Positions 46-49,189 of a stretch of DNA of 49,189 nt are shown in pieces. The notes below the pieces were generated by a model. It saw only the letters and a program-made list of their open reading frames with translations. It was not told the DNA's origin and did not search any database. Origin of the DNA: a virus (Duplodnaviria; Heunggongvirae; Uroviricota; Caudoviricetes); IMG/VR virus record IMGVR_UViG_3300045988_153230; one strand, given 5' to 3'. The stretch's first letter is position 1. Every line of letters begins with the position of its first letter. The position numbers were made by a program, and so were the translations under genes.

Positions 46-168
46 TCATCGTAGCTCAGGTCCGTAAACCTGTAGCTTTTTCAAATCAGCCAAAACCTTT
101 TCCTGAAGAGCGTCTTCTTGCTCATTTAGCCAGTCGTCAAATCGCTGGCTAAAAAGTACCGTCCACAT
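46..168 (-). pseudogene. Truncated RelE/ParE-family (Gp49/HigB-type) toxin remnant
   Basis: ATG at 168..166 opens a frame MWTVLFSQRFDDWLNEQEDALQEKVLADLKKLQVYGPE whose DNA at 55..109 is identical to 49135..49189 (5' part of the toxin gene at the right edge). After the junction at ~55 the frame stops at 48..46. Positions 1..55 are identical to 48278..48332 (inside the 126-aa gene) but out of frame and without a start. Confidence 0.55.
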
Positions 169-32274: not shown

Positions 32275-32350
32275 TGGTGGCCCCTACCGGATTTGAACCG
32301 ATGACCGTGCGATTATGAGTCGCCAGCTCTAACCACTGAGCTAAGGGGCC
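32275..32350 (-). tRNA. tRNA with CAU anticodon (Ile2/Met type, ileX-like)
   Basis: Minus-strand sequence GGCCCCTTAGCTCAGTGGTTAGAGCTGGCGACTCATAATCGCACGGTCATCGGTTCAAATCCGGTAGGGGCCACCA folds by eye into acceptor, D, anticodon (loop CTCATAA) and T arms with encoded CCA; the 5' half matches E. coli ileX as I recall it. Confidence 0.85.
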
Positions 32351-42284: not shown

Positions 42285-42307
42285 CCAAACACATGGAGTC
42301 TCGACAA

Positions 42308-42961
42308 ATGACTATCTCTGTAGGTATTTTCAACGGAAAAGGCGGCGTAACCAAATCAACAATTGCCCGTGCTTTAGCAGTTGCTTATGCAAAGGCTGGC
42401 TGGAATGTATGCCTGATCGATATGGATGTGCTTAACGGAACGGTAACGCGTTGGGTACAACGCAGAATGGCCAACAATATCGAACCAGCAATCGCGGCGC
42501 AGCCGTGCGGCACACCATCACAAGTCCAGAAAATCATCGAATCAGAAATATACGACCTGGTTATCGTCGATGGCGGTGCCTACGCATCTGAATCAGTACC
42601 GAAGCTCTCTGAATTTCTGGATATGGTTATTTTGCCAACCAGATTCTCTACCGATGACCTGGAAACCACCGTTAACACAGCTCACGGCATCGTTAAAAAG
42701 GGTGTACCAATCAAGAAAATTTGCATGGTGTTTTCCGGCGCGGCTGAAAACGAAGCTGACTATATTGAAGCCCAAGAGTACCTGGCTAATACGCCATACT
42801 TTGTTGTCGATAAGTACATTCCCCACAAGCCAGCTCTGAGCAAAGCTCAGGATAAGGGCTTAAGCCTCATTGAGTGCTCATACGTTGCGCCACGCAAAAA
42901 GGCAGACGACGTTATTCAGGGGATTATCAACCAGCTTGAGGCTCTGACTACTGCCGCGTAA
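42308..42961 (+). CDS. parA: ParA-family partition ATPase (type Ib, ParF-like)
   Basis: ~217 aa from ATG at 42308 (GGAG RBS): MTISVGIFNGKGGVTKSTIA... deviant Walker A near the N-terminus. Confidence 0.8.
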   Translation: MTISVGIFNGKGGVTKSTIARALAVAYAKAGWNVCLIDMDVLNGTVTRWVQRRMANNIEPAIAAQPCGTPSQVQKIIESEIYDLVIVDGGAYASESVPKLSEFLDMVILPTRFSTDDLETTVNTAHGIVKKGVPIKKICMVFSGAAENEADYIEAQEYLANTPYFVVDKYIPHKPALSKAQDKGLSLIECSYVAPRKKADDVIQGIINQLEALTTAA

Positions 42962-43253: not shown

Positions 43254-43503
43254 GAGAAGGTGACGGCCTCCAGCGCCAACTGTTGGCCGTCGCGACACAA
43301 CAAGGGGAATTTGTTATGTCCGAGCAACAATATACACGGTTACTAAAAACTCGTCTAATAGACCTCAAACGGCTGCAAGCTGGTCGCTTATTTGCCCTGC
43401 TATCCACCAGGCCAGAATGGGTACGTGAAGCAGTTCTGAAAGGCTTAATGCGCTCAAGCGTTTAAATTCAACCATAAAAAAGGCCCCCGAAGGGGCCTAA
43501 TCG

Positions 43504-43626
43504 CTACTTGCTGCTAATGTTTATCGTCACATTCAGAGCGTTATCAGTAATCTTCCAACCCTCCCCATGTGGCGTAAACAAAGCTCCAGTAACAACGATA
43601 AAAATACACATGTAGTATTTTTTCAT
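43504..43626 (-). CDS. Small hydrophobic protein (40 aa), candidate type I toxin-like peptide
   Basis: ATG at 43626: MKKYYMCIFIVVTGALFTPHGEGWKITDNALNVTINISSK; a bidirectional hairpin (GGCCCCTTCGGGGGCC, ~43478..43500) follows on the minus strand. Confidence 0.4.
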   Translation of the reverse strand: MKKYYMCIFIVVTGALFTPHGEGWKITDNALNVTINISSK

Positions 43627-43940
43627 TGTGTGGCCCTTACAGGCCGTTTCACGGCATCCCCACCGACGAAAATGACGCGAGAGCAAGCACGCTGTTTGTG
43701 CCTGCGTGGTACGGCAAGTGGATAATCCTTTCCTGAAAGTCAGTGCCCGGGTGCGAATCGGCGGAAAGGCCCCAAGCCATATTACACGTCATACCCTTCA
43801 TAATGAAGGAATAAAAAACGCTTTTATTACATAAGATTACACGTAAATAAGTTAAAAACCTTCATTTTGCATGAGCTAATGAGCTAAATTTTTTTATATG
43901 AATAGTGGACTATTCACCTCAGTTGGGTAAGAATGTAGTT

Positions 43941-44044
43941 GCTGTTTGTGCTTGCGTGGTTGTATTAGTACAACGACGTTATGCTGAAAGGACCGCGAAT
44001 CCGATCAGCACGAAAGAACCGTCCTCAAAAGGACGGTTTTTTTG
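43941..44044 (+). ncRNA. Candidate small RNA with intrinsic terminator
   Basis: Begins with GCTGTTTGTGCTTGCGTGGT, a 19/20 copy of 43691..43710 (the putative 5' leader region of the small ORF on the other strand), and ends in hairpin CCGTCCTCAAAAGGACGG plus T7 (44019..44044). Confidence 0.35.
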
Positions 44045-44597
44045 TTTCTCCCCCTTCCTTCCCAAATGATTCAAATGTTAATGAGAGTGAATCATTTGAT
44101 ATGTTCGATTTAGCGCCGTTATCGACCCAATTTCTGTATGCTTCATCACAACAGTACCTTACAGCAGTTGGAGTAACAGGGATGCCGCCCCCAAATGAGA
44201 ATCCCATTGAGCTAATGCTAACTCTTTCGAATGGCCTATTTCTCAATGCTTCAAACCCCTTGCTATTAAAGTAACGCAGCATCAGAGGTAAAAGGTTATC
44301 CTCGTCCTGACTGATTGTTCCAGGGAAAAAGTAGTAACCATAACGGTTAAATTCGGGAATAAGATTTTCTACCAATGACATGAAATTCACTGGAGTAATA
44401 TTAAGGGCTGTGAAAGCACCAAAAAGGGCGTCAACTGTTAATACAGACTGCCCGTTCTCTATCTTTGTCCATGCGTTTGGTGTTTTTCCAGCAGCTTGAG
44501 CCAGCACTCCTTGATGCACACCTCTTTCTAGCCTAAGTTCTTTTATGATCATTAGGTGAATTGTTGAAAAACATGAGTTTTTTGACTGTTCAATCAT
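44025..44597 (-). CDS. HTH-domain protein with uncharacterised C-terminal domain
   Basis: 190 aa; N-terminal XRE-like HTH (...IKELRLERGVHQGVLAQAAGKTPNAWTKIENGQSVLTVDALFGAF...); C-terminal ~110 aa unrecognised. Confidence 0.55.
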   Translation of the reverse strand: MIEQSKNSCFSTIHLMIIKELRLERGVHQGVLAQAAGKTPNAWTKIENGQSVLTVDALFGAFTALNITPVNFMSLVENLIPEFNRYGYYFFPGTISQDEDNLLPLMLRYFNSKGFEALRNRPFERVSISSMGFSFGGGIPVTPTAVRYCCDEAYRNWVDNGAKSNISNDSLSLTFESFGKEGGETKKPSF

Positions 44598-45046
44598 TTT
44601 TTATCCCCATACTGAATTTTTTCTTGTTCCCGACTTTAACAAAATTCCACAACTCAGGACTGATTGATTCCCTACAGGAACTATACATTCCCATTTTTAG
44701 CATATCAAGAAAATTAAAAGCCCCGCATTCAAACCCACACTATGTGGTTTAGTCTGTTAAAATCCCTCTGTATTGACATAAATGCGCCATTGGTGGACAC
44801 TTTCCGAGCCGTAGCAAAATCTACGGTCGGGATTGGAACCCCGATAATCATCATGGCGCATACCGCGTTAGCGGTTTTTTTATGCGTAAAGCACTGCTAC
44901 ACCCAAATTATGGTGGGGCGTGCGGGGGAGTCGTAAGACTCGCCGGATTCCATGGTGACCGGTAGTTCCAACCCTGTACGTCTCACCACCCAATGATTGG
45001 AACCAGACGGTGGTGAGTATCCTTAACCTTTAAGGGAACTATCACC

Positions 45047-45238
45047 ATGACAAACTTACCCCATGACTATTACGTCAACCTCGTAAAGATCCTTCTCAAG
45101 AAAGCCTCATACGCCGATAAATTCCGCCTGGCTGAAATCATCGAGCGCGAAGCTATGCGCATCGCCAGCAACGATAACGCTGTTTCTGACGCAAAAATCT
45201 CCCTCGTAACCAAAGTAGTTATGGGAGGTGCAAAATGA
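45047..45238 (+). CDS. Hypothetical small protein upstream of antirepressor
   Basis: 63 aa, ATGA overlap with the downstream gene. Confidence 0.45.
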   Translation: MTNLPHDYYVNLVKILLKKASYADKFRLAEIIEREAMRIASNDNAVSDAKISLVTKVVMGGAK

Positions 45239-46416
45239 AAACGCTTCCGACCGTTAACACCCTACAGCCTATCCTGCATAACCAAATCCCCGTTATCACT
45301 ACTGAACTACTGGCAAAGCTATACGGCACAGACGTTGATAACATCAAAAAAAATTACTCACGTAACGCAAACCGCTTTATTGAAGGAAAGCATTTTTTCA
45401 AAGTGGCTGGCGATGAGTTAAAAACTTTGCGAGTGACTTTAAGTCACTCACAAAATTTGCGACTGGTTTTAAACGAGTCACAAAATGAGGTGCAAATTTC
45501 CCCCAAAACTCGCTCTCTCATCCTCTGGACAGAACGCGGGGCTGCACGTCACGCCAAAATGCTTGAAACTAACCAAGCGTGGGATGTGTTCGAACGGCTG
45601 GAAGACTGCTACTTCAACCAGAACGCGCAAACGGCCGCGACCGTTACCGTCTCGCCAAACAATGCTCGTGAGGTTGTCGATACGCTCAACGCCAAACCGA
45701 TGTTTTACATTAAAGTGTGCAACAACGAGCCACTCACAACCTCAGCCGATGTTGCCCAGGCATTCAGCACCACAAACAATTCCATCGTTATGGCCATCGA
45801 TGCGCTACGCATTCCTCGCACGGCTGCGGCGCGTCACTTCTTTAAAGAGCAACGACCGCTGGAAGGAAGCGACCGCGAAATAACAATCTATCGCATGACA
45901 AAAGACGGATTTACCTTACTCATGGAGAGCATCGACGGTCCAAGCGTGAAAGATATCAAGCTGGCCTACATTGAAGCCTTTAACGCTATCAGCAGCGTGT
46001 TAAAAACACAGTACGAGCGTGATCTGGCTAAACGACTGTACCAGGAAAAAACGATTATCCGCGCGGCAACAGAGCATAATCGGCTATTAACGGAACCGAA
46101 CTACAGGAAGGAACTAATCAAGGAGTTTGACAAGGCAACAGGGAAAACCAAAGCGGCGCTAAATCTGCCAGCAATGACTCAGGAAAATGTGATATCAGCC
46201 TTACTTCTTGATCTGCTCAGAAACGCCAGAGCACTGATCAGCTTTGACGAAAACCTGAATCCTCAGCTCAAGCTACTACCACCGACAGGCAAAGTAGTCG
46301 ACCAGGCAGATCACAACAGCATACTCAGCGTACTGGATGCAAACCTACCAGCCAGGACACTACAGGAACTGATAAAGATATCGGCGGATAAACTGGCCGC
46401 AGGTGCAAAACCATAA
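45235..46416 (+). CDS. Antirepressor-like protein (ORF6N and Rha-like domains)
   Basis: 393 aa; N-terminal ...PVITTELLAKLYGTDVDNIKKNYSRNANRFIEGKHFFKVAGDELKTL... (ORF6N-like) and central ...NAKPMFYIKVCNNEPLTTSADVAQAFSTTNNSIVMAIDAL... (Rha/antirepressor-like). Confidence 0.65.
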   Translation: MKTLPTVNTLQPILHNQIPVITTELLAKLYGTDVDNIKKNYSRNANRFIEGKHFFKVAGDELKTLRVTLSHSQNLRLVLNESQNEVQISPKTRSLILWTERGAARHAKMLETNQAWDVFERLEDCYFNQNAQTAATVTVSPNNAREVVDTLNAKPMFYIKVCNNEPLTTSADVAQAFSTTNNSIVMAIDALRIPRTAAARHFFKEQRPLEGSDREITIYRMTKDGFTLLMESIDGPSVKDIKLAYIEAFNAISSVLKTQYERDLAKRLYQEKTIIRAATEHNRLLTEPNYRKELIKEFDKATGKTKAALNLPAMTQENVISALLLDLLRNARALISFDENLNPQLKLLPPTGKVVDQADHNSILSVLDANLPARTLQELIKISADKLAAGAKP

Positions 46417-48601: not shown

Positions 48602-48901
48602 TCAGATGTTAAACGCTATTCGTTTTCCTGTGGGAAGCTCAACATCCAGGCTTAATTTGCCTCCCATAGCTTCAACGTAACGCTTTAATGTCGCCAGCTT
48701 TAAATCATTTCCGCGCTGCTCCAGCTTTGTTACTGCTGGCTGGCTTATACCCATCGCCTCAGCAACCTGTTTTTGTGATAACTGGAGTTCTTCACGCATC
48801 ATCTGCAAGCCGACCTCAAGAATCATCTCATCTGCCATTTCTTTAATTCGCGCCTGGCTTTCCGGTGAACGGCTGGCAATCGCCTCATCTAATGTTCTCA
48901 T
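48602..48901 (-). CDS. HigA-like antitoxin (XRE-family HTH)
   Basis: 99 aa; ...LQLSQKQVAEAMGISQPAVTKLEQRGNDLKLATLKRYVEAMGG...; ATG overlaps the stop of the upstream toxin gene by 1 nt (toxin-first order as in higBA). Confidence 0.7.
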   Translation of the reverse strand: MRTLDEAIASRSPESQARIKEMADEMILEVGLQMMREELQLSQKQVAEAMGISQPAVTKLEQRGNDLKLATLKRYVEAMGGKLSLDVELPTGKRIAFNI

Positions 48902-49189
48902 TACTTGCTCTCCAGTGTGTTCAGATGTGCTGCAAACTCATCCTCAGCTATACGCACCAGTTTTTCATAAAACCGCTTATCGTTACTTTTGTCTCCTGCA
49001 CAAAGAACGATGGCCCGGCGAATCGGATCGAACGCATAAAAGGCTCTTATCGGACGGCCAGAAAACTGAACGCGAAGCTCTTTCATATTTTTGTACCGAG
49101 AACCTTTTACGGTATCGGCATATGGCCTGGGTAACTCAGGTCCGTAAACCTGTAGCTTTTTCAAATCAGCCAAAACCTTTTCCTGAAGA
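48901..49189 (-). CDS. RelE/ParE-superfamily toxin, Gp49/HigB-like; 5' end cut by window edge
   Basis: ...GPELPRPYADTVKGSRYKNMKELRVQFSGRPIRAFYAFDPIRRAIVLCAGDKSNDKRFY... matches the Gp49-like addiction-module killer pattern. The true start lies beyond 49189; the homologous left-end copy suggests the N-terminus MWTVLFSQRFDDWLNEQEDALQEKVL... Confidence 0.75.
   Translation of the reverse strand, partial: LQEKVLADLKKLQVYGPELPRPYADTVKGSRYKNMKELRVQFSGRPIRAFYAFDPIRRAIVLCAGDKSNDKRFYEKLVRIAEDEFAAHLNTLESK

Follow-up and report, generated by a model that had tools for sequence, protein, structure and literature searches.

A locus on a ~49-kb phage-plasmid very probably encodes a timP-timR type I toxin-antitoxin module, judging from the homology of its two RNAs and its peptide. 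The timP-TimR pair (formerly ryfA/ryfB) is an experimentally characterised type I toxin-antitoxin (PMC7667032, PMC11228461, PMC13000454), and the locus is an unannotated, divergent copy of this known system rather than a new type. An earlier note on the window, i.e., the whole stretch of 49,189 nucleotides analysed here, had proposed a candidate type I pair made up of a hydrophobic 40-aa peptide and an sRNA encoded apart from it. The type I reading is supported by a match to the ryfA RNA model, a TimP-family peptide, a TimR-like sRNA, and co-varying pairing between the two RNAs; the pair is not a new candidate system, since the same ryfA, TimP, and TimR homologies place the locus within timPR. 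The toxin transcript spans 43476-43774 and the divergent sRNA unit 43941-44046; they do not overlap, and 166 bp lie between them.

The timP transcript, its leader and its peptide

The minus-strand unit 43774..43476 matches the Rfam model RF00126 (ryfA) from end to end (134.6 bits, E=2.3e-34, model positions 1-296 of 296), exceeding the Rfam gathering threshold of 80 bits. The following minus-strand features are assigned to it:

43476..43774, minus strand: timP (ryfA) toxin mRNA of ~299 nt, by the Rfam ryfA match; 148-nt structured 5′ UTR, 40-aa ORF, and intrinsic terminator
43779..43807, minus strand: putative timP promoter, read by eye from the sequence; -35 TTCATT at 43807..43802, 17-nt spacer, -10 TAATAT at 43784..43779
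43728..43768, minus strand: SL1 of the timP leader (mRNA nt 7-47), from the Rfam structure line; holds site 1
43691..43710, minus strand: predicted TimR-binding site in the timP leader, repeat copy 1, in the 5′ arm and loop of SL2 (mRNA nt 65-84)
43683..43705, minus strand: SL2 hairpin (GCAGGCAC / GUGCUUGC); 8 pairs, 100% paired, one compensatory pair
43649..43680, minus strand: SL3; its loop supplies GUCGGUG (site 3, 43667..43661) as the 3′ strand of the pseudoknot
43632..43645, minus strand: SL4 (GGCCU GUAA GGGCC), 100% paired; loop and 3′ arm hold the Shine-Dalgarno sequence
43504..43626, minus strand: timP ORF, 40 aa plus stop; candidate small hydrophobic inner-membrane toxin homologue
43476..43498, minus strand: timP intrinsic terminator (AGGCCCC UUCG GGGGCCU plus U-run), from the terminator scan, at the 3′ end of the Rfam match

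The predicted transcription start lies at ~43774-43772, and the mRNA has a folding energy of -109 kcal/mol (z=-3.8). The timP promoter is putative, scoring below the threshold of the promoter scan; its -10 element is retained as TAATAT, TAACAT, or TAAAAT across three versions of the spacer that have otherwise diverged.

In Salmonella, translation of timP requires a pseudoknot between SL1 and SL3, and pairing of site 2 with site 4 frees the Shine-Dalgarno sequence (PMC7667032, PMC11228461, PMC13000454); this control is reported to be exerted by a structural switch without mRNA processing (PMC11228461). The corresponding elements can be placed in the window. CACUGAC (43745..43739), which is site 1 and provides the 5′ strand of the pseudoknot, lies within SL1, whose lower stem is 96.7% paired over 10 sequences, and is predicted to form 7 bp with the loop of SL3 (alignment columns 30-36 with 109-115), which are paired in all 10 sequences. 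Two of these pairs are compensatory, with both bases differing between plasmid and chromosomal sequences (CACUGAC/GUCGGUG in the window, CGCUGGC/GCCAGUG in E. coli). The register of the pseudoknot was inferred in this analysis, and its gap-corrected positions agree with the published M2/M2′ mutations G33,C34 / G102,C103 (PMC13000454). Likewise, site 2 (GCCGU, 43715..43711) can form 5 bp with site 4 (ACGGC), which flanks SL4 on its 5′ side; this helix is paired in all 10 sequences and agrees with the published C57-G125 pair after gap correction. The Shine-Dalgarno sequence AAGGG (43638..43634) sits within SL4, 7 nt ahead of the timP AUG. Over the 10 sequences, SL1-SL4 together with the pseudoknot reach 96.8% pairing, as against 39-45% in a control in which the partners were slid. 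For the pairing of site 1 with site 2, for which a register was guessed (columns 33-36 with 60-63), the middle position (35-61) is paired in the two chromosomal sequences and is an A.C mismatch in all eight plasmid sequences.

The ORF (43626..43504) translates to MKKYYMCIFIVVTGALFTPHGEGWKITDNALNVTINISSK. As the earlier note had described, its N-terminal segment is hydrophobic and its tail polar. Hydrophobicity is highest over residues 7-17, with a Kyte-Doolittle mean of 2.73 over these 11 residues, and the maximum of E. coli TimP falls in the same place. The NCBIfam model NF040796 (toxic_TimP) aligns with the peptide over its full length (1-40 of 40; 22.2 bits, E=1.2e-4) and is the only NCBIfam match at E<=10, at a score that misses the model cut-off of 45 bits; a Pfam scan of the 40-aa peptide returned no family. 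BLASTP finds 50% identity (E=4e-14) to the RefSeq-annotated TimP of the Yersinia plasmid pGDT4, and E. coli K-12 TimP is 33% identical to the window peptide (E=1e-6). Residues C7, I8, V12, G14, A15, L16, V33, N36, and K40 are invariant in the TimP alignment. The window AUG aligns with the start of the ORF in the ryfA model; a TTG-initiated extension to 60 aa (start 43686) was dropped because the ATG at 43626 has a Shine-Dalgarno sequence and aligns to that model. A word-prefiltered homologue search with the 40-aa peptide recovered only the identical sequence (three members, in Logan assemblies), the prefilter being too coarse for so short a protein. On these alignments, the 40-aa ORF is a divergent TimP. 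Among the plasmid, Yersinia/Serratia, and E. coli versions the ORF, the Shine-Dalgarno sequence in SL4, and the peptide are all conserved, at 33-50% protein identity and a DNA identity of only ~70%.

The TimR-like RNA and its pairing with the timP leader

On the plus strand, the earlier note had placed a unit of ~100 nt that starts with the second copy of a 20-bp repeat and ends in a terminator. The unit is borne out at ~103-106 nt, ending in a strong hairpin and seven T, with a fold of -46.7 kcal/mol and a z-score of -6.9. Its features are:

43941..44046, plus strand: TimR-like antitoxin sRNA of ~103-106 nt, by fold and homology to TimR/RyfB
43906..43934, plus strand: putative timR promoter, read from the sequence; -35 TGGACT at 43906-43911, spacer, -10 TAAGAAT at 43928-43934
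43941-43960, plus strand: TimR 5′ seed, repeat copy 2
43960-43973, plus strand: TimR small hairpin, from the predicted fold
43982-44010, plus strand: TimR conserved central hairpin, from the consensus structure
44012-44043, plus strand: TimR terminator; stem 44017-44025/44030-44038, run of seven T at 44037-44043

A simple terminator scan did not list the TimR terminator hairpin, probably since its stem can extend into the T-run; it is evident in the repeat and fold analyses. Transcription is predicted to start at ~43941. The timR promoter scores 8 of 12, under the threshold of the promoter scan, and is likewise putative; its TGGAC(T/A) and GGTAAGAAT/GGTAAAAT elements are kept in all relatives while the flanks diverge. 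Rfam holds no TimR model, and the assignment of the unit draws on an alignment of the two E. coli K-12 copies and Citrobacter, with the S. flexneri copies compared by inspection. A core of the form CUGCUG.AAAGG.CCGCGAA...AGCA is common to the TimR copies of E. coli K-12, Shigella, and Citrobacter, and two pairs of the central hairpin differ on both sides, A-U to G-C, in a compensatory manner. On this evidence, the plus-strand unit is homologous to TimR/RyfB. An RNAI identity suggested for the region by a permissive Rfam scan was rejected (28 vs 47 bits; no ColE1-type origin), the likeness being generic to three hairpins and a terminator. When genome and viral contigs were searched with a 16-base TimR core pattern (GCTGN{0,1}AAAGGN{0,1}CCGCGAA), which is too short for such collections, the matches listed were mostly due to chance; the real ones among them are three viral loci and two from Citrobacter and Shigella.

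The repeat that connects the two genes, GCTGTTTGTGCCTGCGTGGT, is exact at 43691-43710 and recurs on the same strand at 43941-43960 with a single mismatch, C to T (19/20), as had been noted; neither strand of the window has a third copy, even when three mismatches are allowed. By chance, 0.01 matches would be expected, and two copies occurred in 0 of 100 shuffles. The first copy lies where the earlier note had located it, in the leader of the minus-strand ORF, which can now be specified as SL2 within the leader of the Rfam ryfA transcript. The complementarity that the note had proposed between the plus-strand RNA and this leader is corroborated by an interaction prediction such as it had called for, which gives an ungapped duplex of 20 bp between TimR nt 1-20 and timP mRNA nt 65-84 (-41.1 kcal/mol). 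All 20 positions pair because the one mismatch between the copies results in a G-U wobble. The predicted site occupies the same leader position as in Salmonella, where the TimR site has been mapped experimentally to SL2 (PMC11228461); the 5′-end complementarity of the sRNA is 18 nt in Salmonella and 17-20 nt here and in the relatives.

Across 12 related plasmids, TimR positions 3 and 5 define three seed haplotypes (U,U / C,C / U,C), each accompanied by the fitting A or G in the timP target of the same locus, and pairing over 17-20 bp persists in every locus. At the level of sequence, seed-target pairing is maintained through compensatory changes in both copies, with the intermolecular covariation amounting to two positions and three haplotypes among close relatives. 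Owing to G-U wobble, window-type TimR could still form 18 bp with either of the other target types, so that specificity among the plasmid variants would be partial. The E. coli K-12 TimR copies give runs of 6-7 bp only with the window timP (-21 to -26 kcal/mol), and these chromosomal copies are not predicted to neutralise the phage-plasmid toxin. All 13 loci have an intact timP ORF, whose variation is confined to conservative substitutions near the N-terminus (positions 2-9), and both the ORF and the body of the sRNA are nearly invariant, whereas the intervening spacer was exchanged on three occasions.

The carrier and the role of the module

The carrier matches ~60 non-mobilizable Escherichia plasmids of 46-52 kb and three isolated Yersinia phages, and is present in 71 of 5426 complete E. 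coli genomes (about 1.3%). Across the timPR locus, the window is 99.3% identical to NZ_CP009073.1, the 48,488-bp plasmid of E. coli ATCC 25922. The pseudolysogenic Yersinia phage HQ103 was set aside as an unrelated 32-kb P2-like phage. The timPR module directly adjoins the partition genes, which include a ParA-type ATPase at 42293-42961, and sits between these genes and an isrK-C4-antirepressor module. The same element also carries a higBA-like pair. None of the ~60 plasmid and three phage records examined annotates the timPR locus, because the peptide scores under the NCBIfam cut-off, which also explains why PGAP leaves the ORF unannotated, and because the RNA genes are not called; for the same reasons, toxin-antitoxin censuses of phage-plasmids miss it.

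Molecular control is the only well worked-out side of timPR (PMC7667032, PMC13000454). For the Salmonella homologue, the toxicity and inner-membrane location of the peptide, its repression by the sRNA, and the difference in stability between mRNA and sRNA are known (PMC7667032), and all functional properties of the window copy are carried over from it. By this analogy, timP would be translated only in a conformation that combines the pseudoknot of SL1 and SL3 with pairing of site 2 to the sequence flanking SL4 on its 5′ side, by which the Shine-Dalgarno sequence is released. TimR bound at SL2 would break the pseudoknot and keep translation off. When production of TimR, which is the shorter-lived of the two RNAs, ceases, TimP would be synthesised, enter the inner membrane, and make it leaky.

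In this genomic context, the likeliest role is post-segregational killing (addiction) that would stabilise the plasmid-prophage. A role in maintenance is proposed from the plasmid-prophage nature of the carrier and from the position of timPR directly beside the ParA partition genes, and it is further pointed to by an intact, co-evolving, host-insulated copy beside par, the infectious Yersinia phage isolates, and the copies near tra on Yersinia and Serratia plasmids. Two observations count against addiction specifically: the higBA-like pair could do the same job, and deletion of timR in Salmonella is reported to cause low-level membrane damage (PMC7667032). That the phage-plasmid timPR is a working addiction module tuned for this job is a tentative proposal, somewhat doubtful as it stands; it would fit a seed insulated from the host chromosomal TimR and a possibly weakened lock between site 1 and site 2, which would shift timP mRNA toward the translatable conformation. 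If the addiction reading is true, this would be the first natural setting giving timPR a clear biological function, and the three seed haplotypes would be natural variants for the study of specificity and incompatibility among related plasmid-prophages.

A different function of the same module, defence against other phages by abortive infection or exclusion, is unlikely, if the most credible of the alternatives. Its route, equally unlikely, would be that infection shuts off host transcription, depletes the labile TimR, and so releases TimP; hok/sok reportedly acts against T4 by such a transcription shut-off. Temperate phages often carry defence cargo near immunity regions, and the locus lies between par and the isrK-C4-antirepressor module, yet the adjacency to ParA and the position of timPR near tra on conjugative plasmids suit maintenance at least as well. 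The different stabilities reported for timP mRNA and TimR suit defence and addiction alike. Work cited in PMC13000454 links type I toxins to abortive infection, but the timPR studies themselves (PMC7667032, PMC11228461, PMC13000454) draw no tie to phage defence. More distant is the notion that the ~300-nt RNA is mainly a regulatory non-coding sRNA acting on host stress and virulence genes, with the small ORF incidental. RyfA of UPEC, APEC, and Shigella is indeed treated as an sRNA with stress resistance, biofilm, and virulence phenotypes in PMC8205139, PMC10664665, and PMC13188913. Such a reading is nevertheless improbable given the conservation of ORF, Shine-Dalgarno sequence, and peptide described above, and given that the pseudoknot and the site 2-4 helix are kept with compensatory changes, which is sensible only if translation matters; the RNA may have a dual function, as regulatory sRNA and toxin mRNA.

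Decay was weighed as well: the locus might be a non-functional timPR remnant from a chromosome or another plasmid, as its peptide below the NCBIfam cut-off, its two weak promoters, and the A.C mismatch between site 1 and site 2 in all plasmid copies (in the guessed register) could indicate. This is very improbable in the face of an ORF that is undamaged in every locus with conservative changes only, of an ORF and sRNA body that stay nearly constant beside a replaced spacer, and of seed-target pairs that are kept by compensatory changes alongside all helices. Scarcely credible, finally, is that the 20-bp copies act as DNA-level sites, whether as a centromere in partition or as an operator of the adjacent ParA/ParG-like genes or the HTH protein. 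They are direct repeats 250 bp apart beside a par operon, but there are two copies only, chromosomal timPR loci without par genes have them at homologous positions, the C/T difference between them is of the kind that RNA pairing tolerates as G-U, and each copy coincides exactly with either the predicted 5′ end of an RNA or a hairpin loop; the centromere/operator reading was rejected on these grounds.

Comparison with known type I systems

The zor-orz, shoB-ohsC, and tisB-istR1 systems are likewise of type I, with an antitoxin sRNA that is encoded apart and divergently and pairs with the leader of the toxin mRNA over ~18-20 nt; they depend on mRNA processing or ribosome standby sites. The likeness to zor-orz and shoB-ohsC drawn in the earlier note is correct for the architecture, which is analogous, but not for the family, which is timPR: no similarity to any of the three systems was found by sequence or model, the Rfam OrzO-P model scoring 16.4 bits against a threshold of 60, over the terminator only. 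The hok/sok pair of plasmid R1, the paradigm of the post-segregational killing proposed for the window copy, is likewise a plasmid-borne type I system, in which the toxin mRNA is stable and the antisense RNA labile. Encoded in cis, Sok overlaps its target with full complementarity and acts via the mok reading frame and 3′ processing, whereas the sRNA gene of the window does not overlap the toxin gene; the two systems have no homology.

The match with timPR of Salmonella and E. coli (ryfA / STnc2070 = ryfB) is far-reaching. Both have a divergent, non-overlapping layout and a toxin mRNA of ~300 nt with a leader of four stem-loops, in which the antitoxin site lies in SL2 and the Shine-Dalgarno sequence in SL4, and in which SL1 and SL3 form the pseudoknot and sites 2 and 4 pair. 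Both encode a ~40-aa (38-41-aa) toxin whose N-terminal segment is hydrophobic and signal-like and whose C-terminus reads ..SSK, and in both the sRNA pairs by its 5′ end and has a central hairpin and a terminator. Several differences exist nonetheless. The chromosomal timPR is located between sseA and sseB and the window copy on a phage-plasmid; E. coli K-12 timPR has another seed sequence, with no predicted cross-pairing, and an unrelated spacer between the promoters; and, in the guessed register, the pairing of site 1 with site 2 that marks the inactive conformation contains an A.C mismatch in the window copy, unlike the two chromosomal sequences.

Plasmid-borne timPR modules of the same layout are found on pGDT4 of Y. 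pseudotuberculosis (NC_011759.1) and Serratia pJSRIV001_1, which BLASTN with the window as query misses because the DNA similarity is too low. At the protein level, the TimP of these Yersiniaceae plasmids is the closest relative found, sharing 50% identity and the motif GGW.I..N...VTIN. The two plasmids are conjugative (IncFII/MOBP or MOBF) and carry timPR near tra, whereas the carrier in the window is non-mobilizable and carries it beside par. Apart from the points concerning its role and annotation, the locus is an ordinary member of the timPR family.

The timP mRNA and its leader

An Rfam scan of the whole window at gathering thresholds assigned a minus-strand stretch to ryfA (RF00126; 134.6 bits, threshold 80; E = 2.3e-34), covering the model from end to end (positions 1-296 of 296). 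Originally annotated as a non-coding RNA, ryfA was recognized in 2020 in Salmonella as the mRNA of TimP, a 38-aa toxic inner-membrane protein that is repressed by the divergently encoded sRNA TimR, formerly STnc2070 and, in Shigella, RyfB1 (PMC7667032). Judged by its sequence, the locus is a divergent, unannotated member of this already known timPR family, carried on a phage-plasmid. Its elements are:

43774..43476, minus strand: timP mRNA (ryfA)
43626..43504, minus strand: timP ORF, 40 aa, MKKYYMCIFIVVTGALFTPHGEGWKITDNALNVTINISSK
43691-43710: repeat copy 1, GCTGTTTGTGCCTGCGTGGT, in the timP leader
43941-43960: repeat copy 2, same strand, one C-to-T difference

Residues 7-17 of the peptide form a hydrophobic core, and a polar tail follows, in line with the hydrophobic helix and polar tail of the earlier note. 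It aligns at 33% identity with TimP of E. coli K-12 (E = 1e-6) and at 50% with the TimP that RefSeq annotates on pGDT4, a conjugative plasmid of Y. pseudotuberculosis (E = 4e-14); nine positions are invariant among five sequences. The NCBIfam TimP model NF040796 aligns with the peptide over its full length, scoring 22 bits (E = 1.2e-4), under the 45-bit cut-off.

Ten timP leaders were aligned, comprising the window, seven distinct plasmid variants, E. coli K-12 and S. flexneri. In this alignment, pairing reaches 96.8% over stem-loops SL1 to SL4 and a 7-bp pseudoknot between SL1 and SL3; sliding the 3′ partners lowers it to 39-45%. The pseudoknot (CACUGAC/GUCGGUG in the window, CGCUGGC/GCCAGUG in E. 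coli) is paired in all ten leaders, with two pairs altered on both sides. Its register was derived from the sequences, and after gap correction it coincides with the published mutations G33/C34 and G102/C103 (PMC13000454). The published pairing between sites 2 and 4 (C57-G125), which frees the Shine-Dalgarno sequence, corresponds here to GCCGU/ACGGC and is likewise paired in 10/10 leaders; the Shine-Dalgarno sequence itself, AAGGG, lies inside SL4, 7 nt 5′ of the AUG. For the inactive site 1-site 2 pairing, a guessed register (alignment columns 33-36/60-63; window 43742..43739/43715..43712) places an A.C mismatch within a 4-bp helix, at its middle position, in 8/8 plasmid-type leaders; this position is paired in both chromosomal leaders (E. 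coli K-12 and S. flexneri). If this register is right, the phage-plasmid timP mRNA may favour the active conformation.

TimR and its pairing with timP

The 20-nt same-strand repeat with one mismatch, on which the earlier note had built its case, was confirmed by pattern search: 0.01 matches are expected by chance, two copies occurred in 0/100 shuffles, and no further copy with up to three mismatches was found on either strand of the 49-kb window. Copy 2 opens a plus-strand unit of about 105 nt (-46.7 kcal/mol, z = -6.9 against shuffled sequence) whose end is marked by a G+C-rich stem of 9 bp and a run of seven T, in keeping with the terminated unit of about 100 nt proposed earlier. The terminator was absent from the output of a simple terminator scan; the likely reason is that pairing can continue from the stem into the T-run. 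Rfam contains no TimR family, and its top match for the sRNA region was a sub-threshold hit to RNAI, which was dismissed as meaningless. The window sRNA has the core CUGCUG.AAAGG.CCGCGAA...AGCA and the terminator in common with the Shigella and Citrobacter copies and with both TimR-like copies found in E. coli K-12. A central hairpin is retained in the consensus fold, and two of its base pairs differ between plasmid and chromosomal sequences by an A-U to G-C exchange. By this homology, the plus-strand RNA is a TimR.

The complementarity foreseen between the second-copy RNA and the timP leader was borne out by interaction prediction: nt 1-20 of TimR form 20 ungapped pairs (-41.1 kcal/mol) with nt 65-84 of the timP mRNA, a stretch covering the loop of SL2 together with its 5′ arm, and the single difference between the repeat copies becomes a G-U wobble. 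In Salmonella, the TimR 5′ region has 18 nt of continuous complementarity to the timP 5′UTR (PMC7667032), and probing located TimR protection to the SL2 loop around G76 (PMC11228461), the same region as the predicted site here.

Across twelve related plasmid loci (82-93% identity), three seed haplotypes occur at TimR positions 3 and 5 (U,U; C,C; U,C), each matched by the complementary A or G in its own target, so that every locus is predicted to retain a gap-free duplex of 17-20 bp beginning at the 5′ end of the sRNA. A selected RNA-RNA helix would be expected to show this pattern, though here the sample is small, its sequences are closely related and just two positions co-vary. Window-type TimR is predicted to pair with the other plasmid target types over 18 bp, and owing to the G-U wobble, seed specificity would be one-directional. 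No cross-talk is predicted with the chromosomal system of E. coli K-12: the K-12 TimR copies form runs of only 6-7 bp on window timP (-21 to -26 kcal/mol), and window TimR a wobble-rich 10-bp run on K-12 timP (-20 kcal/mol).

The comparisons show homology, conserved architecture and a conserved, co-varying pairing; for the mechanism, we infer from the Salmonella work (PMC7667032, PMC11228461, PMC13000454) the following. Translation of timP would be restricted to the pseudoknot-containing conformation, which TimR would bind at SL2, disrupting the pseudoknot and blocking initiation. TimP would insert into the inner membrane and render it leaky, and the timP mRNA would outlive TimR.

Carrier element, neighbours and other copies

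The window is essentially an entire circular element of about 49 kb, 98-99% identical to Yersinia phage vB_YpM_41 over most of its length. The locus occurs in about 60 non-mobilizable Escherichia plasmids of 46-52 kb (PLSDB) and in 71/5426 complete E. coli genomes; none of the carrier records found annotates it. Its immediate upstream neighbours are a ParA-type ATPase gene and two small ORFs; downstream follows an antirepressor module resembling P1 immI (44808-46416):

42293-42961: ParA-type ATPase gene
44025-44597, minus strand: HTH gene (HTH_3/HTH_31), 190 aa, convergent to timR
44808-44881, plus strand: isrK (Rfam, 70 bits), immI-like module
44906-44993, plus strand: C4 antisense RNA (Rfam, 84 bits), immI-like module
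45047-45238, plus strand: 63-aa ORF at the position of icd in the module, without Pfam match
45235-46416, plus strand: ORF6N + Phage_pRha (Rha) protein, 393 aa, immI-like module
48602-49189 and 51-168, minus strand: higB2-like toxin gene and partner, annotated from vB_YpM_41
32278-32350, minus strand: tRNA gene (Rfam, 64.8 bits; tRNA-Met in the near-identical phage record)

Since the higB2-like pair spans the window ends, the window represents a permuted whole circular genome. The stop codon of the HTH gene lies inside the loop of the TimR terminator. This gene is a variable cassette, present in the window and in related plasmid loci L003, L009 and L010 and missing from L004-L008 and L011-L014, where other DNA leads from the terminator into isrK. 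Among related plasmids, three mutually unalignable versions exist of the spacer that separates the timP promoter from that of timR (43775-43905), with just -10/-35-like elements retained; across them, the leader and coding sequence of timP and the body of TimR are almost invariant. Such turnover points to recombination, or to strong selection confined to the RNAs.

Plasmid-borne timPR is already in databases. The conjugative plasmids pGDT4 (NC_011759.1; 2428-2547 and upstream), whose copy RefSeq annotates, and Serratia pJSRIV001_1 (about 2420-2990), whose copy lacks annotation, carry complete modules near tra and phospholipase-D genes; just 3′ of TimR, pGDT4 has an apparent partial second timP leader/TimR-like segment. 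The E. coli K-12 RP437 chromosomal locus has two TimR-like copies (978-1074 and 1299-1400), both left out by RefSeq, which annotates timP. K-12 timP pairs better with the distal copy (19-bp run, -40.4 kcal/mol) than with the adjacent one (11-bp, -32), and in S. flexneri the SL2 sequence fits the adjacent type instead. The literature searched yielded no mention of ryfA together with phage-plasmids, nor the timPR papers searched any of plasmid- or phage-borne copies; such absence is not proof.

Likely role and relation to known systems

The element lives as a plasmid, the locus adjoins par, and its toxin is predicted to be insulated from the K-12 chromosomal antitoxin; on these grounds the most economical role that may be proposed is post-segregational killing, in which cells losing the plasmid-prophage would die. 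The element also carries the higBA-like pair, a second toxin-antitoxin system that may serve maintenance as well, and abortive-infection defence is a live alternative to post-segregational killing.

The type I toxin-antitoxin layout recognized in the earlier note was structurally correct, given the ryfA match, the TimP and TimR homologies and the SL2 pairing. Its comparison with zor-orz and shoB-ohsC holds for the logic of the arrangement and fails for family membership: the locus resembles these systems, and hok/sok, in logic only and belongs to none of them. With timPR it agrees in every sequence feature compared, except for the NCBIfam peptide cut-off and, if the guessed register is right, the site 1-site 2 pairing.
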